DNA of 64,000 nucleotides from an uncultured candidate division Zixibacteria bacterium (GCA_963735035.1 CAVTJJ010000004.1:1056001-1120000), one strand, 5' to 3'; positions 32,947 through 46,615 are shown, counted from the stretch's first letter. The notes: generated by a model from the letters alone, not told the origin. Made by a program: numbers and translations.

Positions 32947-35640
32947 TCACATGATTAATACGAGTTTGCCGATCTGAGTGTTGCCCGCATCGTCTTCAAC
33001 CGTCCAATAATATAGTCCGGAGACGGCCTGCTGGGAATTGCGGGTTATGATATCCCAGGTGTCGTGAGTGGAAAGCGGGTCGGACGGGTCGAACCGGTGC
33101 TCGATCTCTCGCAGAAGATCACCGTCGAGCGAGAATATCCTGATCAGGCAGTTGGGCGGCAGGTTGGCGAAATGGATTAGGCGAGTGCGATCGACCGGAA
33201 ATCCGGAGCGAACAGGATCTTCGAAACCGCTCTCACGGTAGTCTTCATCCACCCGATACGGATTGGGGTACACGAAGATGTCGAGTTTTCTTGCATCAAC
33301 TTCAGCGCGGCCGGGGAGGGCGTAGGTATTGAGCGGCAATAAAGTGGGGCTCGTCTCCAGGGCTCCGAGACCAGACTTGGGAGAACCATAATCAAAGGCC
33401 GTGACTCCGACCCAGTAAGGTACTGAAGGTAAGAGATTGTCTATGGTCAACTCGTACTCATAGTACTTGATGAACCCCTCCGGCGTCAGATAGATCGAGT
33501 CGGCGCCGTTGGGGAACTGCGCCCGGATGGAATCTGGGTCCAGCACCGTGGGGCGGAGAGCGTCGGGGAAGACTTTCTTTATGTTGGTCGTGGCATTATT
33601 CGGATCGTTACCCAGAATAGAACGGTTGTGATCCTGAGGCACGAAATAGTACACTCGCTCCGGTTCACCGCCGGCCGCCGGAATGATGAGCGGATGGGTG
33701 CGGGTATAACGCTCCGGAAACCAGGTCGAATCAGTGCACGTGTCGGCGTAGAGACAGCGTAATTGCTCGAGCGTGAACGGGCTATGGACCAGCACGAAAC
33801 TGCCGGTGAGCTCGGACCACTCCCAGCGGTTGTAGTCTTCCAGGTCGTAGGAAGCAATCACCGAGTAGCTAAGCAAGCGTTCGTCGCGAGCAATCCAGAC
33901 GCGATATCCTTCAAAATCAAATTCCCGCGAGAAGATGTCCCGGGTAGTTTCCGAAAGAACGCCGTTCCATCTGATCCGTACTCGACCGGTTTCAGGTTCT
34001 ACTCTGAAGCCCCGGACCCGATTCCCGTAGGCATCGGAGATCGAATAGGCGGCCGGGCTGGGTGGCGGGGCGGCTCCTCGAAAATCCGGAACGCCGTCAC
34101 CCTTGCGCCAGACCGTGTCTGCCAGCTCGTACACCCAACGGCACGAAATAGTCGCGGTATCGGGATTGGCAACGGTGTCGATACCCGTATCGCATACCCA
34201 TTCCGAATCTCCCCCCAGGTTGCACAGAGTGAACACTCCGGCGTAACCATCACTGTCGGTGTCCACTCCCGGATTGTCGTACACCCAGTCAGCCCAGGTG
34301 GAGTTGACGCCCAGCGAGTCGAAATTGACACCTTCATACCAACTGTCCGGGTTGTTCGGAAGGTTGGCAAAATTGCTGGGATTCTTGTGGAAGTTCTTCC
34401 CGCACACATAAGCCAGTGAAACGGGCAGAGTCTGCCCCGGATCGATGTCAAACGGTCCAAAGGAGATCAGATAACGGACATCCAAACCGGTCGCCCAGGC
34501 GCCGACCCGATCACGCGGCGGTGGCAGCCAGATACTGTCCATCTCGGTGATTGTCGCGACCCTGGGCTGGTCATAATCTATTTCGCCGTTTCTCAGGAAA
34601 TGATACATGTTGCGATCACCCGAAGGCTGGCCGATGCCACCGGTCCGAAGAGGACGGAAAGTCTTTCTGGCCTGCGGGCCAAATTCGAGCGCCGGATTGG
34701 AGTTTCGAATCCACCAATTGTAGGATACTACCAGGCTGTCGGAAGGAGTGCGGATGATCCGAAGCGCCGCGGCATGAGGGACAGGCGCAAATACCGTGTT
34801 CCTGAGATCGCCGTCGTTGTCCACCGTCCAGGCCAGGTTGACTTCATCGCTGTCGGGCGGGCAGGGTGGTTTCAGATATAGCGCCGGAACCTTCTTCTTG
34901 AATCCGCTCAGATCGTCTTCGTAACCGTTGTCCATATTGGCCAGCGAATGCACGTCGGCGTCCACATAGAAGCCCATGTAGACCTGGCGAAGGCGGTTGT
35001 CGCCGATGTTCTTGATCCCGTAATCCATCAGAATGAAATCCTGAGCGTATGAATACGACCAGGCAAAGGATCTCTGGGTCACCTCTATTCCCAGGGGAAT
35101 GTGAGGTCGGTTATCCAGATAATCGGTACCCATTCCCTCGCAGCGGGTGCAGGTATCAAAATAGACGGCGACAAAATCCTGTTCTGAGACGGCTCCCTCG
35201 TACTCAGGTTTGGCGGGATCAATCGTGGATCGATACCGCATACTGCCTTCCGGGGCTTTGTCAGGATGAAATTCGTGCCCACCCATACCGCAGGTCGAGA
35301 CCAGTGTGTCGCGATCGCGTACGGCGCCTACCCAGAGATCAGCTCCCCACAAGTAGGTGGTAAAGCTACCCTTGGGATATTCACAGGACTTGAGCGTGAG
35401 ATGAGTGAAGCAGTCGGTGTAGCCGCCCAACGACCAACCGTTTCCGAACGATCCGTCGTTGCTGACCGACATGACAATATTGCCAACGTCGTGCTGGGCA
35501 TTACAATAAGCCGGGCCACCGGCGCTTGCCGAGGGAAGTGGGGCGGTGACGTTTTCAAACGACCGGGCTTCTACCAATACTGAGCAGAGTACTACCAGAA
35601 AGGCGGTCAGACTCGAAATGATTCGGGAGGGGTTAGTCAA
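32947..35640 (-). CDS. Large secreted protein with C-terminal sorting-like domain, paralog 1
   Basis: Colinear with the downstream paralog over its whole length, with the same motifs; TTG start at 35640 inferred from the signal peptide. Confidence 0.8.
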   Translation of the reverse strand: MTNPSRIISSLTAFLVVLCSVLVEARSFENVTAPLPSASAGGPAYCNAQHDVGNIVMSVSNDGSFGNGWSLGGYTDCFTHLTLKSCEYPKGSFTTYLWGADLWVGAVRDRDTLVSTCGMGGHEFHPDKAPEGSMRYRSTIDPAKPEYEGAVSEQDFVAVYFDTCTRCEGMGTDYLDNRPHIPLGIEVTQRSFAWSYSYAQDFILMDYGIKNIGDNRLRQVYMGFYVDADVHSLANMDNGYEDDLSGFKKKVPALYLKPPCPPDSDEVNLAWTVDNDGDLRNTVFAPVPHAAALRIIRTPSDSLVVSYNWWIRNSNPALEFGPQARKTFRPLRTGGIGQPSGDRNMYHFLRNGEIDYDQPRVATITEMDSIWLPPPRDRVGAWATGLDVRYLISFGPFDIDPGQTLPVSLAYVCGKNFHKNPSNFANLPNNPDSWYEGVNFDSLGVNSTWADWVYDNPGVDTDSDGYAGVFTLCNLGGDSEWVCDTGIDTVANPDTATISCRWVYELADTVWRKGDGVPDFRGAAPPPSPAAYSISDAYGNRVRGFRVEPETGRVRIRWNGVLSETTRDIFSREFDFEGYRVWIARDERLLSYSVIASYDLEDYNRWEWSELTGSFVLVHSPFTLEQLRCLYADTCTDSTWFPERYTRTHPLIIPAAGGEPERVYYFVPQDHNRSILGNDPNNATTNIKKVFPDALRPTVLDPDSIRAQFPNGADSIYLTPEGFIKYYEYELTIDNLLPSVPYWVGVTAFDYGSPKSGLGALETSPTLLPLNTYALPGRAEVDARKLDIFVYPNPYRVDEDYRESGFEDPVRSGFPVDRTRLIHFANLPPNCLIRIFSLDGDLLREIEHRFDPSDPLSTHDTWDIITRNSQQAVSGLYYWTVEDDAGNTQIGKLVLIM

Positions 35641-35922
35641 AGCTCTTATTCTCAATCGCGGACGGGCGGCTGGTATTGGGCATCCTCCAACCGCGCACAC
35701 CGACAAGAAAGGGTCTTCGACCCGGTTTGGTCAAGTTCTATCTATTCTGAGACGGACAGCCGGCCGAATTCGTTGATAGTCTGGATCGACCCACTTGGGC
35801 CATAATCGGCGGCTCTTGGCGCGACTGCGAATCGCACTTGATCCGGGCCCGGCGTAGATATTATCTTCATGTAGCCCAAGCTGAGCGTACTCTGAAGTTC
35901 TTTTCCACGTTAGGAGCTGTTC

Positions 35923-37104
35923 ATGCGACGCTTGATTCTTCTCTCGGTTCTGGTTTGTATCCTTGCGGCGTGTAGCGCCAATGATCCCAACAAGTATATG
36001 TCGTTGCATCGTGACGCCCTGGTGGTCGATTTGCACAGCGATGCCGTCCTCAGGATGATGCAGGGAGCCGATTTCGGTATCCGCGATACGGTCGGGGATA
36101 TGGACCTTCCGCGTCTGCGCGACGGCGGGGTCGATCTGCAGGTAATGGCCTGCTGGATTTCGACCGAGACACCCAAAGCAGAGTGTCGCCCCATGGTTGA
36201 TCAGATGATCGATTCAATCCAGGCCCAGGTTGGTCGCTACGGTGATCAGGCCGGTATTTGTCTGACTGCCGCGCAGGCCGAGAAGATCATCGCGGATAAG
36301 AAGCTGGCTGTCTTCATCGGAATCGAAAACGGTGTGGCGCTCGCCGATGACATAACGAACCTCAAGCATTTCTATGACCGGGGAGTCCGCTACCTGACGC
36401 TGACCCACACCGGCTCAAGCGACTGGTGCATTTCGTCGGCCGATACCGCTCCGGCTTTCCCGGGGCTGACCGATTTCGGCCGGGACGTCGTGCGCAAGAT
36501 GAACGGGCTCGGCATGATTATCGATGTCTCACACGCTTCTCCGTCCGCTGTCGAGGAAGTCCTGAAAACCTCCACCGATCCGGTCATTGCGTCGCATTCG
36601 TGCGTACACGCTCTCTGTCAGCATGACCGCAATCTCACCGATGATCAGATTCGCGCCATCGCCGCCAAGGGAGGCGTGATCGGCATCAATTTCTACAATG
36701 GTTATCTATCACAGGCGTGGAATCTGGCGGCCGATTCACTTTTCAAATTCTACGGACCGACGTTTGATTCTATCGATCAGGTCTATGCCGATGACAAGGC
36801 CAAGCGGCATGAGGCCAAGGGATCGATCATGGCCGAAATCGACCGCGAACTCAAGAAGTGTAATGTCAATGTCGCGACCGTGGTTGATCACATCGATTAC
36901 ATTGCGAAACTAGTCGGTCCTGATTACGTCTGCTTCGGCTCCGATTTCGACGGTGTCTTCAGCCTGCCCGAGGGGCTGAAAGATTGCACTTATGTTCCGA
37001 ATATCACCAAAGAGTTGGTGACGCGAGGGTATTCCGATGAAGATATCCGCAAGATTCTCGGCGGCAACTTTATGAGGGTGTTCAGGAAAGTCTGCGATAG
37101 TTAG
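35923..37104 (+). CDS. Membrane dipeptidase (peptidase M19) lipoprotein
   Basis: Lipobox LAAC, DLHSD, GIENG, RYLTLTH, IDVSH, ASHS, RNLTDDQ, GSDFDG, ILGGNFMRV. Confidence 0.93.
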   Translation: MRRLILLSVLVCILAACSANDPNKYMSLHRDALVVDLHSDAVLRMMQGADFGIRDTVGDMDLPRLRDGGVDLQVMACWISTETPKAECRPMVDQMIDSIQAQVGRYGDQAGICLTAAQAEKIIADKKLAVFIGIENGVALADDITNLKHFYDRGVRYLTLTHTGSSDWCISSADTAPAFPGLTDFGRDVVRKMNGLGMIIDVSHASPSAVEEVLKTSTDPVIASHSCVHALCQHDRNLTDDQIRAIAAKGGVIGINFYNGYLSQAWNLAADSLFKFYGPTFDSIDQVYADDKAKRHEAKGSIMAEIDRELKKCNVNVATVVDHIDYIAKLVGPDYVCFGSDFDGVFSLPEGLKDCTYVPNITKELVTRGYSDEDIRKILGGNFMRVFRKVCDS

Positions 37105-38789
37105 GACTTCTGAAGAGCTGCCGGTTTCCGGCGGTCCCGCTCCAGAAGTATCTGGTTGGACGACGAGCGCGATTCGCCCACTGATGTAATGTAGATCGCC
37201 TTCCGGTCATTGACGGGGCAGGCGAACTCACAGGCGCCGCAGCCGGTACACAGTGAAGCGTCAATGTAAGGTCGCTTCACCTTGACCTGCCGCCCGTGAC
37301 TATCGACCGCCACTTCCTCGATGAGATATACAGACTTGGGAGCGGTGGGGCACCATTCTTCACACACTATGCATGGGGTGGCCATCGCCCAGGGGAGGCA
37401 GCGGCCCCGATCAACAAAAGCGGTGCCGATACGATTCGGCGGCGTTTCTTTGTCGCCTACCTTTTGTTGTAGTGTCAGCCTTTGAATCGCTCCGGTCGGG
37501 CAGACCTGCCCGCATAGAGTGCAGGTAGGTTCGCAGTAGCCTATCCTGGCGATTAGATACGGTGTCCAAAGTCCCTCGAAACCGGCCTCAGAGAGAGTGG
37601 GATGCAGGGCATTGTTGGGGCAGACCCGCATGCACTGGCCGCAACGAATACATCGACTCAGAAAATCGCCCTCGGGCTGAGCGCCGGGTGGGCGAATCAG
37701 AATTGCAGACGGATTCACTTCGAACGAGTCGCCCGCGCGAAGCATCGGTATCAACGCGACTCCACCGACAACCGAGGCCACCACTTTGCGCCGGGTCACG
37801 TCGAGTGACGAAGTCCCGGCTGGATTTTCGACCGATGCGATTTGATCGGGGAAGAATTTGAAACTCAGCGAACCTTTGGGGCACGAAGCCTGACAGTTCA
37901 GGCACATGTGACATTCGGCCTGTCGCCAGACGGCTCCGATATCGGGATTGTCTGCTCCCTGACACGATTGCAGGCACAGGTTGCAGTGGTCGCAGTGTGA
38001 GGTGTCCTTCCTCAGTCCGAAAATGGCGTATCGGGAGAAGATGCCCAGCATCGCCCCGAGCGGGCAGATCGCTCGACACCAAAAACGGGTGAACACCCGG
38101 TTGAGCACCAGTATCAAAACGAAAAGCAACCCTATCAACAGTATGCCGTGAAAATGAGCCTGGCGGAAAGTCAGCAGGACCGGTGCAATGAGATCATAGA
38201 AGAATTGTGCCAGCCAGGCCAACGGCAGGATGCCGGTAGATCCTGTCCACGAAACCATGCCAGCCATGGCTGAATGAAAAGCCGGGAGTACTGCCGTGCC
38301 TATCGACCGGGCCAGGAGTGGCAATGGATCCAGAAGTCCGGCCTGCAACGAGCCAAGTACCGCCGCTCCCACACATACAAAGAAGACGTAGTACTTGATG
38401 CGTTGATATGGCCGGTACCGATTGGTCTCCATCTTCCCTTTGCCACGGAAACTTCTTCGTTCAGACTTCACTTCGGAAAGCCAGTGATTCAAGCTTCCGA
38501 GCGGGCAGACCCAGCCGCAGAAGAACCGGCCAATAAATATCGTTGGAATGAGGATTACCAACGACCAGAGCATTCCTTTATAGACAGTCCCGCTGGCCAG
38601 CAGAGCCATCAGAGCGGCCAGTGGATCGAATTCGAGAGCCACTGAAACCGGATAGGGGAGGGTAATCTCAGACGCGCTGGCGCCGCCGAACGAAACTTCA
38701 AAAGTTGTCTTCAGGATCAGCCAGAAGAATATGATGAAGAATATGATTTGAGAGAGGCGACGAAGATTTCTGACGACCCGGATCGTCAT
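37101..38789 (-). CDS. Membrane-bound polyferredoxin (NapH/MauN-like membrane domain fused to a NapG/MauM-like domain)
   Basis: TM helices, FFCGWVCPLG and FWCRAICPLG, two CxxCxxCxxxC motifs, internal TRR plus TM, then IRPPGA...CIRCGQCMRVCP, CEPTCTLCGQVCP, CIVCEEWCP, CTGCGACEFACP. Confidence 0.9.
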   Translation of the reverse strand: MTIRVVRNLRRLSQIIFFIIFFWLILKTTFEVSFGGASASEITLPYPVSVALEFDPLAALMALLASGTVYKGMLWSLVILIPTIFIGRFFCGWVCPLGSLNHWLSEVKSERRSFRGKGKMETNRYRPYQRIKYYVFFVCVGAAVLGSLQAGLLDPLPLLARSIGTAVLPAFHSAMAGMVSWTGSTGILPLAWLAQFFYDLIAPVLLTFRQAHFHGILLIGLLFVLILVLNRVFTRFWCRAICPLGAMLGIFSRYAIFGLRKDTSHCDHCNLCLQSCQGADNPDIGAVWRQAECHMCLNCQASCPKGSLSFKFFPDQIASVENPAGTSSLDVTRRKVVASVVGGVALIPMLRAGDSFEVNPSAILIRPPGAQPEGDFLSRCIRCGQCMRVCPNNALHPTLSEAGFEGLWTPYLIARIGYCEPTCTLCGQVCPTGAIQRLTLQQKVGDKETPPNRIGTAFVDRGRCLPWAMATPCIVCEEWCPTAPKSVYLIEEVAVDSHGRQVKVKRPYIDASLCTGCGACEFACPVNDRKAIYITSVGESRSSSNQILLERDRRKPAALQKS

Positions 38790-39742
38790 CAAGCCACCTC
38801 AAGGTATCCGGCCGCTCTGTAGTCGAGATTGCCAAGGCCGGATTGCGCCGCCAGAACAATGTGCTCGACTGCATCGCCCCTGAGACCGAGGAATTCCGCC
38901 GCCCGCGAGTCGGCGGCGACCAGATCGGTAGCGCACATTACTGTGTTTTCAATCGCGACATCATCGAGGGATCCCCCGGTGGGCCCCCCTCTGAGCAGTA
39001 CGCGGGTGGCATCGACCACCGTTAAGGTCGGTTTGCAGAAAGCGGCCAGATCGACAATCGCCTGATCGATCTGTTGATGCAACTGATTGCGTCGTCCGCC
39101 GATGATGCCGTACAGATTCTTCATCCCAATCGTACAGCGTGACAACGAATGCTGTTTGACAATCGGCATGTTGATAAAACGATCCGTTTCGATGAAACAC
39201 TTCGCCACCGGCCAGCGGGTAAGCACTTTGCCGTTAAGTTCGATCTCGACCAGATCTTCTTCGGCCGGAAGAATTACGCGTGCACCCGCCTTCTCGGCCG
39301 CTTCTCGAATACCGGAGCGAAGAAAACAGCGGCGGGGATCGTTGCAGGTGATATCGGCAACCACAACTTCTTTTGCTCCCGCTTCCAGGCAGAGCCGGAT
39401 CATTTTAGCGACCAGTTCGGGGTTCGTATTGGCCGCCTGGGCGGGGGTACGGTCCCAACCGACATTTGGCTTTATTGTTACCCGTTCTCCCGATTTGACA
39501 AATCTGGAAATGCCACCGATAGCATCCAGCGATGCCAAGAGAGCTTGGCGAGGATCTTCGCGCTTGGCGAGGGTTAGTTTGGGCAACTGCGATGCGGGGT
39601 CGACCTCGAAACTCGCTTTGCGGGCCAAAACCGGCCGGTAAACTATGCTCTCGCGGTTGTGGAATAACCAGCCTGTTCCACCCGTTAGGGCGGCCAGAGC
39701 TGCTGCCTGACCGGTTCTTTTGAGAAATTCACGTCGTTGCAT
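38789..39742 (-). CDS. Tat-exported DUF362 family protein
   Basis: MQRREFLK twin-arginine signal; LDAIGGISRFVKSGERVTIKPN, NTNPELV, INMPIVKQH, TIGMKNLYG, DLVAADS. Confidence 0.88.
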   Translation of the reverse strand: MQRREFLKRTGQAAALAALTGGTGWLFHNRESIVYRPVLARKASFEVDPASQLPKLTLAKREDPRQALLASLDAIGGISRFVKSGERVTIKPNVGWDRTPAQAANTNPELVAKMIRLCLEAGAKEVVVADITCNDPRRCFLRSGIREAAEKAGARVILPAEEDLVEIELNGKVLTRWPVAKCFIETDRFINMPIVKQHSLSRCTIGMKNLYGIIGGRRNQLHQQIDQAIVDLAAFCKPTLTVVDATRVLLRGGPTGGSLDDVAIENTVMCATDLVAADSRAAEFLGLRGDAVEHIVLAAQSGLGNLDYRAAGYLEVA

Positions 39743-39901
39743 TACATATTCCGACCGCTTGCTTCGTTTAGAATACTACTGGACTTAGTCTGATGCAAGA
39801 TAGTATATGACGAATAGGTGGAACCTGACATACCATCAATACTGTATTAGTTGAGGTGGACAATAAGAAGCGGACGCGTTTCTAAGAATGGTATTCTGAC
39901 A

Positions 39902-40750
39902 ATGACCGAAACTGAACTGTTAAATGCAAGTGAGCGAAAACTTACCGATTTAAGGGCCCGGCTCAAATCGATGGGGCGGGTTCTAGTTGCCTATTCAGGC
40001 GGCGTGGACAGTGCCTTCCTGCTCAAGGCTGCGGTGGATGAACTCGGCGCCAACACCCTGGCGGTCACGGCTGATTCGCCCACAATCCCGCGTATGGAAC
40101 TCGAAGCGGCAGCCAGTCTGGCGCGCCAACTGGGCGCGAAGCACCTCGTGGTGAAGACCGACGAGATGGCCAACCCCGCCTTTATTGAAAATACTGCCGA
40201 TCGCTGCTACCACTGCAAGACGACCCTGTTTTCGACCCTGACCAACCTGGCGAATGAGAAGGGATTCGGCTGTGTGCTCGAAGGCTCCAATGTCAGCGAT
40301 CTGGCCGACTACCGTCCCGGCATGAAAGCGGTCAAACAATTCAACGTCCGAAGCCCCTTGCGTGAAGTCGGTCTCACCAAAGACGAGATTCGGCTTCTGT
40401 CGAGACAGGCTGGACTTCCGGTGTGGGACAAGCCGGCCGCACCCTGTTTGTCGTCGCGCATCCCGTATGGTTCGCCGATCACTCTGGAGAGACTGCACCG
40501 TATCGAAGCGGCGGAGGGGTTCGTTCGGCAATTGGGCTTCCCGATTCTCCGTGTACGGGATCATGGCCAGGTGGCCCGCATCGAGGTGCCGTCGGTTGAT
40601 ATCACGAAATTGCTCGATCCGGATGTGGCCGCACAAATACAAGAGCGTCTCAAGTTGCTCGGTTTCCAATATGTTACGATCGATATGGCTGGTTTCCGCT
40701 CCGGCAGTATGAATGAGGTGCTGGGGAAGGCGACCGATGGACCGCGCTAG
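39902..40750 (+). CDS. larE: ATP-dependent sulfur transferase LarE (three-Cys, [4Fe-4S]-type)
   Basis: PP-loop AYSGGVDS, RCYHCK, DYRPG, WDKPAAPCLSSRIPYG, LRVRDHG..ARIEV, GFRSGSMN. Confidence 0.93.
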   Translation: MTETELLNASERKLTDLRARLKSMGRVLVAYSGGVDSAFLLKAAVDELGANTLAVTADSPTIPRMELEAAASLARQLGAKHLVVKTDEMANPAFIENTADRCYHCKTTLFSTLTNLANEKGFGCVLEGSNVSDLADYRPGMKAVKQFNVRSPLREVGLTKDEIRLLSRQAGLPVWDKPAAPCLSSRIPYGSPITLERLHRIEAAEGFVRQLGFPILRVRDHGQVARIEVPSVDITKLLDPDVAAQIQERLKLLGFQYVTIDMAGFRSGSMNEVLGKATDGPR

Positions 40751-41495
40751 CCTCCGTCGACTTCTCGAAGAGGTTCAATCCGGCAAGATGGAAGTCGGCG
40801 CGGCGCTCGAACGTCTCAGGACCTTTCCGAGCGAGGACCTCGGTTTTGCTAAACTAGATACCCATCGGGCCCTTAGGCGCGGCTTCCCCGAAGTGATCTT
40901 CTGTACGGGGAAGACGGTCGAACAGATCGTGACGATTTTCGGGTCGCTCGCTCGTGACGGTCACCAGGTGATGGCCACCAGAGCCGGTGCTGATGTCTTC
41001 GAGGCGGTCAAACAACATCATCCCGGCGCGGTGTACCGGAGCGAAGCGCGAATTGTCCTGGCTTTGGAACCGTTGCCGCCGCGAACGGAAAAGAGGGTGG
41101 CGGTGGTTTCCGCGGGAACATCGGATATCCCGGTCGCCGAAGAAGCTGCAGTCACGGCTGAAGTAATGGGCTGCCCGGTGGACCGGATCTACGATGTCGG
41201 TGTGGCGGGGATTCATCGTCTGCTTGGCGAGCGCGACAAGCTCGCGACTGCCAACGTGCTCATAGTAGTGGCCGGTATGGAAGGGGCGCTGGCGTCGGTG
41301 GTTGGCGGCCTGGTCAGCCGCCCAATAGTCGCGGTACCAACTTCGGTGGGATACGGCGCCAGTTTTGAAGGTCTGGCGGCGCTCCTGGCGATGCTCAACA
41401 GTTGCTCGCCGGGCGTGGCGGTCATGAATATTGACAACGGCTTCGGCGCCGGCTACTTTGCCGCGACTGTCAATCTCGATAAGAACGAATTATGA
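40737..41495 (+). CDS. larB: Nickel-pincer cofactor biosynthesis carboxylase/hydrolase LarB
   Basis: FAKLDTHRALRRGFPEVI, SAGTSDIPVAEEA, DVGVAGIHRL, AGMEGALASV, VPTSVGYG, NIDNGFGAG. Confidence 0.95.
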   Translation: MDRASLRRLLEEVQSGKMEVGAALERLRTFPSEDLGFAKLDTHRALRRGFPEVIFCTGKTVEQIVTIFGSLARDGHQVMATRAGADVFEAVKQHHPGAVYRSEARIVLALEPLPPRTEKRVAVVSAGTSDIPVAEEAAVTAEVMGCPVDRIYDVGVAGIHRLLGERDKLATANVLIVVAGMEGALASVVGGLVSRPIVAVPTSVGYGASFEGLAALLAMLNSCSPGVAVMNIDNGFGAGYFAATVNLDKNEL

Positions 41496-42679
41496 AACTA
41501 CTCTATTTCGACTGCTTCTCCGGCATCAGCGGGGACATGATTCTCGGCGCCTTGATCGACGCCGGTGTTTCTCTGGACAAGCTGAAAGCCGAACTGGCGA
41601 AACTCAATCTCGCCGGATTCTCCATCACGGCCGAGAAGTGTGTCAAGAACGGCATCTCCGGGACGAAGGTGACCGTCCACACCGAAGACCAGAAAGTGCA
41701 TCGCCACCTCAAACATATTCACGAGATAATTGAGCCGAGCGGGCTGTCTGATAAGGCGAAGAAGACCAGCCTCAGAGTATTTCAGACGCTGGCCGAAGCC
41801 GAAGCCAGGATTCACAACACCAGCCCCGAGAAAATTCATTTTCACGAAGTAGGTGCACTCGACGCGATAGTCGATGTGGTCGGTTCAGTGGTAGGGCTGC
41901 AACTTCTGGGCATTGATCAAGTGTGGGCCTCGCCGGTACATGTCGGGACCGGTTTTGTCGACTGCCAGCACGGCCGCATACCTTTGCCGGCACCGGCCAC
42001 AGTCGAAATCCTCAAGGGAACGCCAGTATATTCCACCGGCCTCGACGCCGAATTGGTCACACCTACGGGAGCGGCGTTACTGAAGACTCTGGCCGACAGT
42101 TTCGGGCCGTTGCCTCCGATGCAACTCGAGACTATCGGCTACGGTGCGGGCACACAGGACCTGCCCATTCCGAATCACCTTCGCGTCATAGTTGGAACGA
42201 CGCAAGGTCAATTCGAATTCGATCAGGTCGATTTGATCGAGACCAACATCGATGACATGCCGCCGGAACATCTCGACTACGTTGTCGAACGCTTGATGAA
42301 AGCCGGTGCGCTGGATGTCTCGATGACACCACTGATCATGAAGAAGAGCCGTCCGGCCGTCTGCCTGGGGGTGCTAGTCATGCCGCAGGATACATCGCGT
42401 CTCCTGACAATCATATTCTCAGAAACGACGACTCTGGGTGTGCGCATTCAGAAAGTAGAGCGACGGAAACTCCCGCGTGAGATACGTACGGTGAAGACAC
42501 GTTTCGGCGATATTAGGGTCAAAGTCTCGTGGCTTGAAGGTTCCGTCAGAGACATGTCTCCCGAATATGAAGATTGCCGTCGATTGGCCCTTGAACACAA
42601 TGTACCACTTCATGAGGTCTACCGGGCGGCTAGTCACGCAGCGGAGCAGGAATGGCCGGATGATTCGCGGAAAGGATAG
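41492..42679 (+). CDS. larC: Nickel insertase (cyclometallase) LarC, single ORF
   Basis: DCFSGISGDMILGAL, HFHEVGALDAIVD, HGRIPLPAPAT, ELVTPTGAA, ETNIDDM, MKKSRP, ETTTLGVR, PEYEDC. Confidence 0.95.
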   Translation: MKLLYFDCFSGISGDMILGALIDAGVSLDKLKAELAKLNLAGFSITAEKCVKNGISGTKVTVHTEDQKVHRHLKHIHEIIEPSGLSDKAKKTSLRVFQTLAEAEARIHNTSPEKIHFHEVGALDAIVDVVGSVVGLQLLGIDQVWASPVHVGTGFVDCQHGRIPLPAPATVEILKGTPVYSTGLDAELVTPTGAALLKTLADSFGPLPPMQLETIGYGAGTQDLPIPNHLRVIVGTTQGQFEFDQVDLIETNIDDMPPEHLDYVVERLMKAGALDVSMTPLIMKKSRPAVCLGVLVMPQDTSRLLTIIFSETTTLGVRIQKVERRKLPREIRTVKTRFGDIRVKVSWLEGSVRDMSPEYEDCRRLALEHNVPLHEVYRAASHAAEQEWPDDSRKG

Positions 42680-42683
42680 TCGG

Positions 42684-43584
42684 ATGATTCGCTTCGGTGT
42701 GGTGTTTGGATCAGTGTTCCTCTTGGGCGTGCTTCTCGTTGGATGCGGCGGAACAAAATCTTCTCAGGCCGATGATCTGACAGGATACTTCCCAGACAAG
42801 ATCGACGATAGTCTCCAGAAGACTTCCGAAATCCGTACTTTCGTGGGCGATTCGCTCTGGCAGTACATCGACGGTGGCGCCGAGCTCTATCACACCTACG
42901 GTTTCGTCAAGGTCTCCACCGCGGACTATCGAAGTGGTGGAACGGAACTAGTGCTCGATCTGTACCAGTTCAAGACTCCCGAAGGGGCTTACGGACTCTA
43001 CAGTGCGCTTCGGCCGGATGAGCCATCGCTGGTAACATTGGGGGTAGAAGGGTACGTCACCGGGGCGAGTCTCGAATTTGTTAGTGGTAACATCATGGCA
43101 CGAGTCATGGGGTATGAGGCAACAGAAGCGGTCGGGAAAGCGCTTCGCGCCCTGGCCGGACAGATGGCGAGACGTTCTCCCCGGGACCACCCAGCGCCCG
43201 GCGATGTTTTCACTCTTCCCAGACGATCATGTCGTGGCCAATACCGACAAGATCATTGGCGCTTCGTTCCTGGGGCAATCATTTTTCAACATGATCTACA
43301 CCCGCGACTATCAGTTTGAGAATGAAAAGCTGACGCTGTTTATGGTAACGGATACTGCAGGGGCGGCCTTCGCCAACTGGGTGTTGGCGACAAGCGATGC
43401 CGACAAGGCCGCCGGTAAGGCTACGGGATTGCCGTTCGACGAGAACTACTGTCTCCTGGTGGCCAATAATTTCTACGGCAAGGTTCTCGCCGGTCTACGA
43501 AACGGCAAACTCGCCGGAGTCGTAAACTACAGCGAGCTACATCGCGACTTCATAACTGCCTGGCTCAACAGCCTTACCAAGTAG
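42684..43584 (+). pseudogene. Lipoprotein (DUF6599-like) interrupted by a +1 frameshift near 43170 (pseudogene or sequence error)
   Basis: Lipobox LVGC; FVGDSLWQYIDGGAELYHTYGF, AYGLYS; the plausible reading continues in the next frame as DVLPGTTQRPAMFSLFP...FLGQSFF to the stop at 43584; family name recalled from memory. Confidence 0.65.
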
Positions 43585-43594
43585 AACTCGCTAA

Positions 43595-44830
43595 TCAACC
43601 GTAGATCAGCTTAAGCTCACCGATCTTTCTCGGAATATTCACCGAGTTTGCACACCGGGCGACACAGGTGTCGCACGATGAACAGGTCTTGACCGACCGG
43701 CGATTGTCTATTTCATCCAGAGTCTGACGTGCAAGCTGAAAGTCGGCGTACTGTACGGCATACATGTGTGTCCGCATCAGGCTGGGGACGTCGGCGTTGC
43801 GTGGACAACTGGCCAGGCACTTGCGGCATTGGCGGCAGAATTCCATACCGAGCGTGATCTGATTGTCGGCCAGAAAACGTGATTCCTCGTCGGTCAGATT
43901 CAGATTACTCGCAATGGGGAAATTGGCCCGAAGGTGATCGAAATTACCTGTGCCCGGAATCGCAGTGCCGACACTTTCATTTCGCAAGACCCATTTGAGG
44001 GCGGCTGAATTGACGACCGTGCCCGGGTACTGTCTGAGCGTTTCCGGATTGGGAAACCGCGCTCCTCCCGCCAGCACTTTCATCGCGATTATGCCCACAC
44101 CGTGCGACGCGGCGTTGGCGATCGCGCCCATCATGGCGGTGTCGGAAGCCATCGTGAAATTGAACGAAGTCAGGATGACATCGTAAATACCTGTCTCGAC
44201 CGCGGCGTTGATGACATTGGCCATGTCCTGATGAGTGGAGAGGCCGACAAACCGCGCCTTGCCTTCCTTCTTCAGCGCTACCAGGGCATCATTAGTGGCC
44301 TGATTCTTAACCGTGGCGGGCTCACGGACATCGTACAACTGCAGAACATCAACGTAGTCCATCTTCAATCGTTTCAGGCTGGCCTGCACGGATGTATCAA
44401 TGGCCGCCTTTACTTTTTCGGGGGCAGTGGCGTTGCGCTGTGGTGGGCCGAAAGCCTTGGTGACGATAATCACTTTGTCGCGAACTTTCATTTGCTGCAT
44501 GACCGCACCGATCATCTGCTCGTTGCGGCCGTAGGCGTAGGTGTCCGACGTATCAAACAGCCTCATGCCGGCGTCATAGCAGGCTTGCACCAATGTCGGG
44601 TCATTGCAGGCTCCCGCGCCCATGCTGACAATCGGCACTTCGATTCCGGACCGTCCCAGCTTGCGGGTGATTGTCTTGCCGGTCGTGGTTGATTTAGGTG
44701 CGGCTTTTTCTTCGGCCCGGACCAAACTGGGAGTGACGGTCGTAAGGCCGGCGGTCGCCAGACCGGCTGTCGCCAGGCTGGCGAGCGAAGTCGTTACAAA
44801 TTCTCTCCGACTGAATTCCTTGTTTTCCAT
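43595..44830 (-). CDS. Aldo/keto reductase with twin-arginine signal and C-terminal Fe-S domain
   Basis: SRREFV signal, RKLGRSG, FDTSDTY, SLKRLKMDYVD, RFVGLSTH, IAMKVLAGG, CRQCRKCLASCP and CSSCDTCVARC. Confidence 0.88.
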   Translation of the reverse strand: MENKEFSRREFVTTSLASLATAGLATAGLTTVTPSLVRAEEKAAPKSTTTGKTITRKLGRSGIEVPIVSMGAGACNDPTLVQACYDAGMRLFDTSDTYAYGRNEQMIGAVMQQMKVRDKVIIVTKAFGPPQRNATAPEKVKAAIDTSVQASLKRLKMDYVDVLQLYDVREPATVKNQATNDALVALKKEGKARFVGLSTHQDMANVINAAVETGIYDVILTSFNFTMASDTAMMGAIANAASHGVGIIAMKVLAGGARFPNPETLRQYPGTVVNSAALKWVLRNESVGTAIPGTGNFDHLRANFPIASNLNLTDEESRFLADNQITLGMEFCRQCRKCLASCPRNADVPSLMRTHMYAVQYADFQLARQTLDEIDNRRSVKTCSSCDTCVARCANSVNIPRKIGELKLIYG

Positions 44831-44902
44831 TGTATTCAATAACTCCTTTCGGTCATTGGCAGCGTCGTTCGAAATTCTTCTTCGATGTTCAATCGGGAAA
44901 TC

Positions 44903-46528
44903 TCACTTGCTCTCACCTGCGGGTTTGCCCTGCGCGGCAATTTCCTGCTCGAGTCTTTGTATGTTGGCCGGGATGCTGGTCTCGAGTTGCGTGCGCATGG
45001 CCGGCATTAGCTGAGTGTCATTCGGCAAGATCTCCAGAGCTTTCCGGTAGTTAGCCAGGCCGGTTGCCAGATCGCCGCTGGCCGCGCAGGCTTCGCCGTA
45101 ACTGTCCCAGGCGTTGGCTGAAGTAGGCCAGGCGGCTACACCCCACGCGAAGATTTGCACCGCCGATGGCAGGTCGCCGCGCTGCAAGAACTGATAGCCC
45201 AGTTGGGTCCAGGCACCGTCGGCCAGAAGAGGTGTCTCCACAGTGGGAATCTTGAAACTCTCACACAACTCTCTGGCATGTGTAAGGCCGTGGGTTTGTA
45301 TTATATTGAGGAATTGATCTCCGGTCGGGGGGAGGTCCTCCGCATCCCTGCGATAAAACACAGTGCCCTCTCCGACCTGGCCTACGGAGCCGGGTCGAGG
45401 GCCCAACCAGTCAAGGCTGGCTTGATTATCGTTCAACGTGGCGTCGAAAAATCGCCGCAGGTACTCACCAAGGACGGCCTGCGCCTTACTTGCCTCCTCA
45501 ATCGTGCGAGTAGTGTCAATCCCAGCGACGGCGCTGATGATGCCATAGACGCTGAATTCGGCCGGTCTGACCGAAGGTACGTAGGCCGAATAGAGTCGGC
45601 AATAGCGCATCCCACCGTCTGGGTTCGGATCGGGATTTACCACAAATTGGCTTGGCCAGAGCTGAAGCCAGGGAACCCTCATGCGCTTTGGATCATAGCT
45701 GTTGCTCTTGTACAGAGCTGCCCACTCACCGTCACCTACAACTTCCTTACCATGGAGAGTTGCGACCGCATTAACCGCAAAATTCCGCATCTGATGGATA
45801 AATGCCGTAGTGACACCGTAGTTGTATCCGATCAAGCCCAGCTTTTCGGTATTTACGAATTCGAGGCCGCGCATGGTCGCGACCGCCTGCTCCTTGTCGC
45901 GTGTGACAGCTTCGACATCCGATGCTTGTTCGGTAGCGTTGACCGTCGCCCCGCCGACCGTGTGAGTCGTGGCCACTACAAACCCGTGAGTGGCCAGGTA
46001 CTCACAAAGCACTACGTTCTGGTTGTAACCGCCGTTCTCGCTCCCGTGATAAACTATCAGAGGGAAGACCCCTCTCGCCGGGGAAGCGTCACGGATAGCT
46101 CTCAATTCGTAATTCATAATTTGAGAGGCCAATCCCTGGTTGTTGCCGATCCTTGCATATATTGACCCTATGTCGCGATTTTGGAGACTTGACAGTAACG
46201 CGAAGAGTCTCGAATCGGCCGGATATGGGAATGAGTATTCTCCGTAGGTCATGGCCGTGCCGTTTGTGTCGACCGCCGGGTACCAATAACAAATCTGTAT
46301 CGGTCGGGCGGTTTCTCCTTCGATCGGAGTCCCGAAATAGTCTCGTGCCGGTTGAAAAGTCCGCGAGTAGTCAAAGAGCTCGATCGTTTTGAAGCCCACG
46401 CCGTACGGCCCCGGCTCCAATCCACCCCAGAGAGGCGGCTTCTCGCCAAACGTCGATGTCGCCGTCAGCAGGAACGCGAACCCAACGAGCAGCATCGTCT
46501 TACGAACGGTTGCAGTAGATTTGGTCAT
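44903..46528 (-). CDS. Secreted alpha/beta-hydrolase-fold protein (PAF-AH/dienelactone hydrolase-like) with C-terminal TPR
   Basis: PGPYGVG, RPIQICYWYPA, FPLIVYHG, EYLATHGFVV, elbow GYNYG, TPR SANAWDSYGEA. Confidence 0.75.
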   Translation of the reverse strand: MTKSTATVRKTMLLVGFAFLLTATSTFGEKPPLWGGLEPGPYGVGFKTIELFDYSRTFQPARDYFGTPIEGETARPIQICYWYPAVDTNGTAMTYGEYSFPYPADSRLFALLSSLQNRDIGSIYARIGNNQGLASQIMNYELRAIRDASPARGVFPLIVYHGSENGGYNQNVVLCEYLATHGFVVATTHTVGGATVNATEQASDVEAVTRDKEQAVATMRGLEFVNTEKLGLIGYNYGVTTAFIHQMRNFAVNAVATLHGKEVVGDGEWAALYKSNSYDPKRMRVPWLQLWPSQFVVNPDPNPDGGMRYCRLYSAYVPSVRPAEFSVYGIISAVAGIDTTRTIEEASKAQAVLGEYLRRFFDATLNDNQASLDWLGPRPGSVGQVGEGTVFYRRDAEDLPPTGDQFLNIIQTHGLTHARELCESFKIPTVETPLLADGAWTQLGYQFLQRGDLPSAVQIFAWGVAAWPTSANAWDSYGEACAASGDLATGLANYRKALEILPNDTQLMPAMRTQLETSIPANIQRLEQEIAAQGKPAGESK

Positions 46529-46615
46529 TTGTTTATCCAACCTGATTAAGGGTGCCCTATAGCAACTGAGACGGACGGAACGGACTTCCCGTGCAATCGT
46601 CGATCAGCAAATATA

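Follow-up and report, generated by a model that had tools for sequence, protein, structure and literature searches.

Why should the genes that make a nickel-pincer nucleotide lie among genes for exported redox proteins, with no larA beside them? The question is raised by a stretch of DNA of 64,000 nucleotides ("the window": GCA_963735035.1, CAVTJJ010000004.1:1056001-1120000; positions are counted from its first letter) from an uncultured candidate division Zixibacteria bacterium. In it, larE, larB and larC are flanked on one side by divergently transcribed genes for a DUF362 protein with a twin-arginine translocation (Tat) signal and a membrane polyferredoxin (PFD), and on the other by genes for a DUF6599 lipoprotein, a Tat-signal aldo-keto reductase (AKR) and a dienelactone-hydrolase-like protein with TPR repeats ("hydrolase-TPR"). 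An earlier note, made from this sequence alone, had proposed that the whole is an extracytoplasmic nickel-pincer redox system, and that DUF362 is its client, that is, the protein that takes up the cofactor. The first proposal is still a live idea. As to the second, a better candidate had been passed over: the exported AKR bears the His/Lys motif with which another AKR, NphT, holds the cofactor, and we put it at somewhat better than even that the AKR, rather than DUF362, is the likeliest cofactor user in the cluster.

An NphT-type His/Lys motif in an exported aldo-keto reductase

AKRs encoded beside larBCE in the absence of larA can use the nickel-pincer cofactor (PMC13524815, Nat Chem 2026). 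In NphT (PDB 9YEB) the cofactor is covalently tethered through Lys200, with His144 on the nickel, and 34% of the larBCE-adjacent, larA-less AKRs carry both residues, as reported in the same paper. The window AKR aligns with NphT (chain 9yeb_A, whose numbering runs +3 relative to that of PMC13524815) over residues 58-264 at low identity (phmmer, E 1.5e-13, 53 bits), and within residues 170-270 the alignment sets GLSTH203 on NphT GITGH144 and IIAMK254 on MTIK200; both the His and the Lys are missing from three canonical L-galactose dehydrogenases aligned in the same run. H203, M253 and K254 are invariant in 28/28 AKR orthologues, and the His and Lys are kept, down to 24% identity, in 44/44 Tat-AKRs from DUF362/PFD or AKR loci. 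These 44 proteins also have 8-11 C-terminal cysteines and, in all but one (truncated at a contig end), a twin-arginine signal. In the window protein the signal is SRREF (residues 10-14) and the C-terminal domain has two CxxCxxCxxxC motifs. The core of its structural model (residues 52-325) has a predicted local distance difference test (pLDDT) mostly >90, and its top Foldseek matches are all AKRs (E ~1e-17).

The window AKR and NphT share the AKR fold, the His and Lys aligned to the nickel ligand and the tether, three of the four catalytic tetrad residues (Asp, Tyr and Lys; D96, Y101 and K128 here), and a gene placed beside larB, larE and larC and away from any larA. What NphT does not share is the twin-arginine signal, the C-terminal 2x[4Fe-4S] domain and the DUF362/polyferredoxin/DUF6599 module. 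The main text of PMC13524815 nowhere uses the words periplasm, iron-sulfur or ferredoxin, and PF04015, DUF362, PF00248, PF20244 and DUF6599 have 0 occurrences in the 12 of its supplementary files that were searched (5 others were left out). A literature search found no paper joining aldo-keto reductase, twin-arginine and 4Fe-4S.

Juxtaposition with lar genes and co-occurrence

Lar genes stand beside this AKR in three lineages: that of the window; genus g12 (G036, in loci L088 and L154, and G086); and G187, an Acidobacteriota genome. In G036 the hydrolase-TPR gene accompanies the AKR at the lar locus. In G187 (L308, contig C26) the whole array lies on a single strand: larB and larC1 come first, followed by a gene of FG-GAP/TPR type and two unknown ones, then larE, a further unknown gene (409 aa), and finally DUF362, PFD and the His/Lys Tat-AKR.

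Co-occurrence was followed in two samples, 151 genomes of the phylum and 121 of the Acidobacteriota (completeness not given; G214 flagged as unpublished). In the Acidobacteriota, LarC is present in 21/21 genomes with the AKR vs 68/100 without; the corresponding figures for LarA are 50/54 and 39/67. Other AKR-bearing genomes have LarC in 13/15 (two shared with the Acidobacteriota sample) and 4/5 cases. It is the combination of the His/Lys motif, the NphT precedent, the three separate juxtapositions and the 21/21 co-occurrence that makes the AKR the probable client.

Several observations weigh against this preference. LarC is common in the Acidobacteriota regardless of the AKR (89/121), and related genomes are not independent, so that Fisher values for these contrasts, as for those in the phylum, overstate significance. 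Direct adjacency is rare: larEBC was found in only 1/78 AKR loci. A genome of the same genus, G014, has larCBE beside DUF362-PFD (the only such case among 20 other lar loci of the phylum) and has no AKR match at E<=1e-30. The AKR occurs in 30/151 phylum genomes, 19 of them with Lar genes; the other 11, including the single-contig G034 and G137, are without LarB and LarC, and their AKRs keep the His and Lys all the same. Lastly, the fourth position of the catalytic tetrad is Y169 where the tetrad, and most of the orthologues, have His.

How heavily should the absence of cofactor-making genes be counted? LarB is above cut-off in 82/151 phylum genomes (and split across contig ends in one more) and LarC in 86/151, the two sets nearly coinciding. 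A LarA homologue (~410 aa; L001, L135-L148) occurs in 140/151: in 74 genomes with LarB and in 66 without, some of the latter single-contig. Its four cofactor residues are intact in 8/8 Lar-negative genomes checked, which suggests either salvage of the cofactor or a cofactor-independent role. Because the LarA homologue itself occurs without LarB, lar absence in the phylum cannot separate clients from non-clients, and does not show that a protein is independent of the cofactor; phylum co-occurrence is equivocal for every candidate client.

A proposed pathway for the exported enzyme

Taken as a whole, the proposal is of a nickel-pincer AKR that is exported by Tat and wired through PFD to the quinone pool; its chances appear to us to be even. 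Nickel-pincer nucleotide made in the cytoplasm by LarB, LarE and LarC would be bound to Lys254 of the AKR, its nickel ligated by His203 as in NphT, and the folded, cofactor-loaded AKR would then be exported by Tat. NAD(P)H is not expected in the periplasm, and the bound hydride cofactor would take its place. What the AKR would oxidise or reduce is an alcohol or a carbonyl compound of the periplasm, perhaps an aldose; a lactone formed in this way may be opened by the neighbouring hydrolase. Electrons would pass from the [4Fe-4S] clusters of the AKR to the periplasmic NapG-like domain of PFD and on to the quinone pool, with net redox chemistry as the outcome, unlike the disproportionation of NphT. 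DUF362 would sit on PFD as its constant periplasmic partner, and the same cofactor would also serve a cytoplasmic LarA homologue encoded on another contig, C6.

Two parts of this scheme, the electron path from AKR clusters through PFD to quinone and the sugar or lactone substrate, we infer only. The thought of a sugar or lactone comes from the hydrolase neighbour, from the action of NphT on aldoses and from known fusions of DUF362 to CBM9 and dockerin (PMC5742341).

The genes of the cluster

The genes were assigned from a listing of open reading frames (ORFs) together with Pfam and NCBIfam scans of the window.

37101..38792, minus strand: polyferredoxin (PFD; NapH-NapG fusion, 563 aa); NCBIfam NapG 104 bits, NapH 73-76 bits
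38789..39742, minus strand: Tat-signal DUF362 protein (317 aa); PF04015 165 bits
39743..39901: divergent intergenic region between DUF362 and larE, from ORF coordinates
39851..40750, plus strand: larE; TIGR00268 336.9 bits (cut-off 150); likely start ATG 39902
40713..41495, plus strand: larB; NF033503 297.6 bits (cut-off 175); likely start 40737
41492..42679, plus strand: larC; PF01969 518 bits; TIGR00299 and NF052512 above cut-off
42684..43584, plus strand: DUF6599 lipoprotein gene; PF20244 89 bits; lipobox LLVGC
43595..44839, minus strand: Tat-signal aldo-keto reductase (AKR); PF00248 122.5 bits (cut-off 24), Fer4_17; likely start 44830
44903..46540, minus strand: signal-peptide dienelactone-hydrolase-like and TPR protein; PF01738 and TPR families; N-terminal hydrophobic segment

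The gene map of the earlier note (PFD, Tat-DUF362, larEBC, lipoprotein and Tat-AKR) is borne out by these ORFs and family matches, and so is its divergent region of ~160 bp, which measures 159 bp to the likelier larE start, ATG 39902, and 108 bp to the first TTG. The end of the DUF362 gene overlaps the start of the PFD gene by 4 nt, an arrangement by which the two are, to judge from the sequence, translationally coupled. The Tat-AKR gene is convergent on the larEBC-DUF6599 operon. A scan for consensus promoters and terminators over 39600-44950 did not rise above shuffled sequence (5 and 4 sites, vs 2.8 and 4.6).

LarC is full length in a single frame, with LarC1 (227.9 bits, cut-off 90) and LarC2 (156.8 bits, cut-off 50) parts. 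Two motifs in the LarE translation, SGGxDS and CxxC-C, assign it to the [4Fe-4S]-dependent class described in PMC9283937. LarE, LarB and LarC are the same three enzymes as in the lar operon of Lactiplantibacillus plantarum, where larA accompanies larB, larC and larE; the window cluster differs from that operon in having no larA, in its single-frame larC, and in a LarE of the CxxC-C [4Fe-4S] class, like that reported for Thermotoga maritima (PMC9283937).

The DUF6599 gene begins 4 nt past the larC stop, as the earlier note had it, and encodes a lipobox, but the gene is frameshifted here: the frame changes once, near 43165-43190, and the +1 frame then runs through 43584. Orthologues are uninterrupted (299-321 aa) and align to the window gene in two frames. 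The change may be a sequencing error or it may mark a genuine pseudogene. A literature search on DUF6599, PF20244 and PF04015 yielded nothing relevant except PMC11770544, which is taken up below.

An older module with an inserted lar operon

Which of these genes belong together? Close relatives of the window DUF362 were collected as 80 genome loci (52-76% identity) and, in a second set, 80 metagenome loci. PFD lies downstream of DUF362 in 71/80 of the former and 69/80 of the latter; DUF6599 is nearby in 32/80 and 41/80, and an AKR homologue in 13/80 and 10/80. Seen from the AKR, the hydrolase-TPR gene is upstream in 43 of 78 loci and DUF6599 nearby in 35; the cluster DUF6599-DUF362-PFD-AKR is present in 6/78 and co-directional in four. 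All 30 AKR-positive genomes of the phylum sample also carry Tat-DUF362. AKR, hydrolase-TPR, DUF6599, DUF362 and PFD are thus an exported redox-protein module conserved across phyla, and the cluster of Tat-DUF362, polyferredoxin, lipoprotein and Tat-AKR that the earlier note had picked out is genuine.

The lar genes are another matter. LarE, LarB or LarC was found near close DUF362 relatives in 0/80 genome loci (even at E 1e-3) and in 1/80 metagenome loci, so that the enrichment of larBCE near this DUF362 subfamily that the earlier note's proposal called for is not seen. The single metagenome locus, L228, has the gene order of the window including larEBC. Another, L229, whose DUF362 is 79% identical, runs TPR, hydrolase-TPR, AKR, DUF6599, DUF362, PFD, M19 peptidase: the window order without the lar genes. 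Because the order exists in L229 without lar and in L228 with it, larEBC is to be regarded as an insertion into an older cluster: a lineage-specific insertion between DUF362 and DUF6599.

LarA elsewhere in the genome

That no LarA is encoded in the window, as the earlier note observed, is correct: the window has no match to PF09861 (Lar_N). The same note had held that a larA elsewhere in the genome would tell against a new client, and a LarA homologue is indeed encoded there. The single PF09861 match of the 3.6-Mb genome is on contig C6 (the window lies on C4): a LarA homologue of 411 aa (L001:1327-2562) that adjoins malate dehydrogenase, ndk and a 2-oxoacid:ferredoxin oxidoreductase subunit. 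Aligned with 5huq_A, its H97, H164, K174 and H190 correspond to LarA H108, H174, K184 and H200. Since all four cofactor residues are kept, larEBC, as far as the sequence tells, has a conventional client in the genome, outside the window.

The genome yielded no further copy of larB or of larE. A second LarC-like gene exists at the start of contig C2 of the genome, G000 (L307:1452-2550); it is 39.5% identical to the window LarC over residues 142-372, has its N-terminal part in a different frame, and adjoins genes of folate C1 metabolism (FTHFS, FTCD_C, FolD) and NuoE/F-like genes. There are also two more DUF362 paralogues, L003 (C4) and L004 (C6), with 83 and 67 bits to PF04015.

In other genomes LarA and the exported AKR can be neighbours: a LarA homologue adjoins this AKR in 8/78 AKR loci (L195, L199, L200, L202, L204-L206 and L213). 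These loci, from Krumholzibacteria and others, have one or two His/Lys Tat-AKR genes each, and 7/8 of the genomes have LarC.

DUF362 as a possible client

The most durable alternative is that DUF362 itself carries the cofactor, alone or together with the AKR: Lys208 would be the tether, in a LarA-like pocket facing a PFD cluster, and the protein would be a quinone-linked oxidoreductase. We think this rather unlikely. That DUF362 is a second client beside the AKR is similarly doubtful, and that both exported proteins use the cofactor and are wired through iron-sulfur clusters and PFD to the quinone pool is less probable again.

The case for DUF362 begins with its fold. The protein starts MQRREFLK, with R3 and R4 at least 90% conserved among 64 diverse relatives, and N93, K196, H198, K208, H222 and D244 are invariant in 64/64 of these. 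It matches PF04015 only, not PF09861, but DUF362 and LarA are placed in one Pfam clan, CL0471 (PMC11770544; structures of LarA and its homologues include PDB 5HUQ, 7S91 and 9EIA), and the model (pLDDT 95), compared by VIA-align over DUF362 residues 60-289 and LarA residues 34-269, matches LarA-family N-domains with Z 17.8, 17.4 and 17.1 (root-mean-square deviation 2.8-2.9 A, 205-207 residues). Z is 15-18 for N-domains of the LarA family and 5.5 for the next unrelated fold, and the top 19 Foldseek matches are all LarA-family. The kinship with the LarA N-domain that the earlier note had put forward is thereby upheld.

On the pocket the ground is less firm. A weak hhalign comparison with 15 LarA homologues (E 0.08, probability 0.7) sets H198 on LarA H174, K208 on K184, and N93 on a conserved Asn. 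The same weak alignment leaves H222 without a counterpart to LarA H200 and puts Cys133 at the position of His108; the LarA C-terminal domain is absent altogether. Of the LarA-like pocket with Lys and His ligands that the earlier note envisaged, the model shows the fold, and the weak profile alignment places His198 and Lys208. DUF362 is furthermore unlike LarA in being Tat-exported and paired with an iron-sulfur protein.

The distribution of DUF362 argues in both directions. LarC is found in 38/42 Acidobacteriota genomes with Tat-DUF362 vs 51/79 without, close to LarA's own 50/54; one of the four exceptions has LarB. Of the 5 control genomes (among 14) that carry DUF362, 4 encode both LarB and LarC; LarA is absent from two of the 4. 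The juxtaposition in G014, where no AKR was matched, also speaks for DUF362. Against this must be set 1) the near-absence of larEBC beside close relatives, described above; 2) the fall of the Acidobacteriota contrast to 9/12 vs 24/49 once genomes with LarA or the AKR are removed; 3) three Acidobacteriota genomes with DUF362 that are without LarB and LarC; and 4) Bacteroides thetaiotaomicron, which matches DUF362 but not LarB (E<=1e-20) or LarC. Co-occurrence in the phylum also goes against the earlier note's choice: 57/151 genomes have an orthologue (identity 60% or more), 22 of them with LarB and 35 without, and 34 lack LarB and LarC alike. To read this pattern (35/57 without LarB) as a refutation was considered and dropped: intact LarA homologues show the same pattern.

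The polyferredoxin and its predicted face

PFD is the partner that DUF362 rarely lacks. In NCBIfam terms the N-terminal half resembles NapH, and residues 331-536 resemble NapG. The layout, read from hydropathy, positive charges and Cys motifs, is first a membrane part of NapH type, whose two CxxCxxCxxxC motifs (from C267 and C294) are cytoplasmic, then a twin-arginine pair, R334-R335 (R335 invariant in 33 sequences), ahead of a weakly hydrophobic fifth helix, and then a NapG-like domain with four Cys clusters (residues ~355-563). A PFD of this kind, a NapH-NapG fusion with dual Sec/Tat insertion, has been described, and NapGH is a quinol dehydrogenase (PMC5449189); by its sequence features the window polyferredoxin has the same dual Sec/Tat architecture. 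With the PFD of the delta proteobacterium MLMS-1 (PMC5449189) it shares the NapH-like four-helix part with its cytoplasmic clusters, the twin-arginine ahead of the weakly hydrophobic fifth helix (~335-352 here vs 338-359 there) and, with NapGH as well, the NapG-like four-cluster domain outside the membrane. It differs from these in that PFD of the window type is always paired with a Tat-DUF362 gene, and not with nitrate reductase.

A model of the complex between DUF362 (residues 40-317) and the periplasmic domain of PFD (355-563) scores 0.83, while the best of 3 controls scores 0.00. A score of 0.83 is attained by 116/157 solved complexes and 2/215 mismatched pairs, a calibration that holds only roughly, since the present model was built from alignments of our own. 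The docking runs share at least 98% of contacts, with a partner pLDDT of at least 93. The predicted DUF362 interface consists of residues 133-135 (C133-D135), 198-200 (H198-L200), 222-225 (H222-Q225) and the loop 252-258, and it faces the Cys-ligand loops 421-424, 472-482 (Cys 474, 477 and 481) and 524-526 of PFD. A profile of the 64 DUF362 sequences run against all PDB chain sequences gave chance-level matches only (best E 0.31), and since no DUF362 structure was thus found by sequence, the docking is unlikely to echo a solved complex. That H198 and the region of H222 are predicted to lie opposite PFD Cys ligands 474, 477 and 481 is a point in favor of DUF362 as a cofactor carrier.

Is the adjacency fortuitous?

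Might larEBC have landed in the cluster by chance? In that event the cofactor would serve only the LarA homologue of contig C6, the AKR and DUF362 would use other cofactors or none, and their conserved His and Lys would have some other role. The intact residues of that homologue are what one would then expect, and so is the manner in which close relatives (L229-L231, L249) keep the module without larEBC. In the phylum, too, both the AKR and DUF362 occur in many genomes without LarB and LarC, and most of the other loci have larB-larC among Dus, ETF-like, Ppx and kinase genes, a housekeeping setting with no client alongside: in the 20 other phylum loci, no other obvious cofactor client was found beside larB-larC among the Dus, ETF-like, Ppx, FHA, phosphoesterase and CHASE2 kinase genes. 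Yet the absence of lar genes tells little when 66 phylum genomes carry the LarA homologue and no LarB, and chance would have had to bring lar genes beside parts of the module in three separate lineages, to give the AKR a His/Lys pair that matches a biochemically proven cofactor site, and to place the AKR with LarC in all 21 Acidobacteriota genomes that have it, so that we consider a fortuitous adjacency improbable.

The housekeeping setting is itself a conserved block (L086, L089-L095, L098, L100-L103): Dus, LarB, LarC, an ETF-alpha-like gene and sometimes Ppx/GppA, divergent from genes for an FHA protein, a metallophosphoesterase and a CHASE2 Ser/Thr kinase, with larE not adjacent.

What the exported AKR would change

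To our knowledge, the nickel-pincer cofactor was until 2026 known only in cytoplasmic LarA racemases. NphT, which shuttles hydride between sugars, is likewise a cytoplasmic enzyme (PMC13524815). If the preferred reading, a nickel-pincer AKR exported by Tat, is true, the cofactor is placed outside the cytoplasm and its hydride chemistry linked to respiratory electron transfer. Should both the AKR and DUF362 use it, nickel-pincer enzymes would for the first time be placed outside the cytoplasm, and electron exchange between such a cofactor and iron-sulfur clusters for net redox chemistry would likewise have its first case; DUF362, a large and functionally uncharacterised family, would become a third protein scaffold for the cofactor. 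The widespread and likewise uncharacterised DUF362-polyferredoxin pair gains a predicted interface and a predicted active face. There is also a question of supply: many genomes keep apparent clients without the genes that make the cofactor.

Neighbours of the cluster

Two further genes of the window recur in the company of the module. The gene for an M19 membrane dipeptidase whose N-terminus resembles that of a lipoprotein (35923-37104, plus strand) is convergent on the PFD gene and is present in L228 and L229 as well. Beyond it, an ORF of 919 aa (32947-35706, minus strand) has a hydrophobic stretch at its N-terminus and matches no Pfam family; its relatives are found near the module in L155, L162 and L229.

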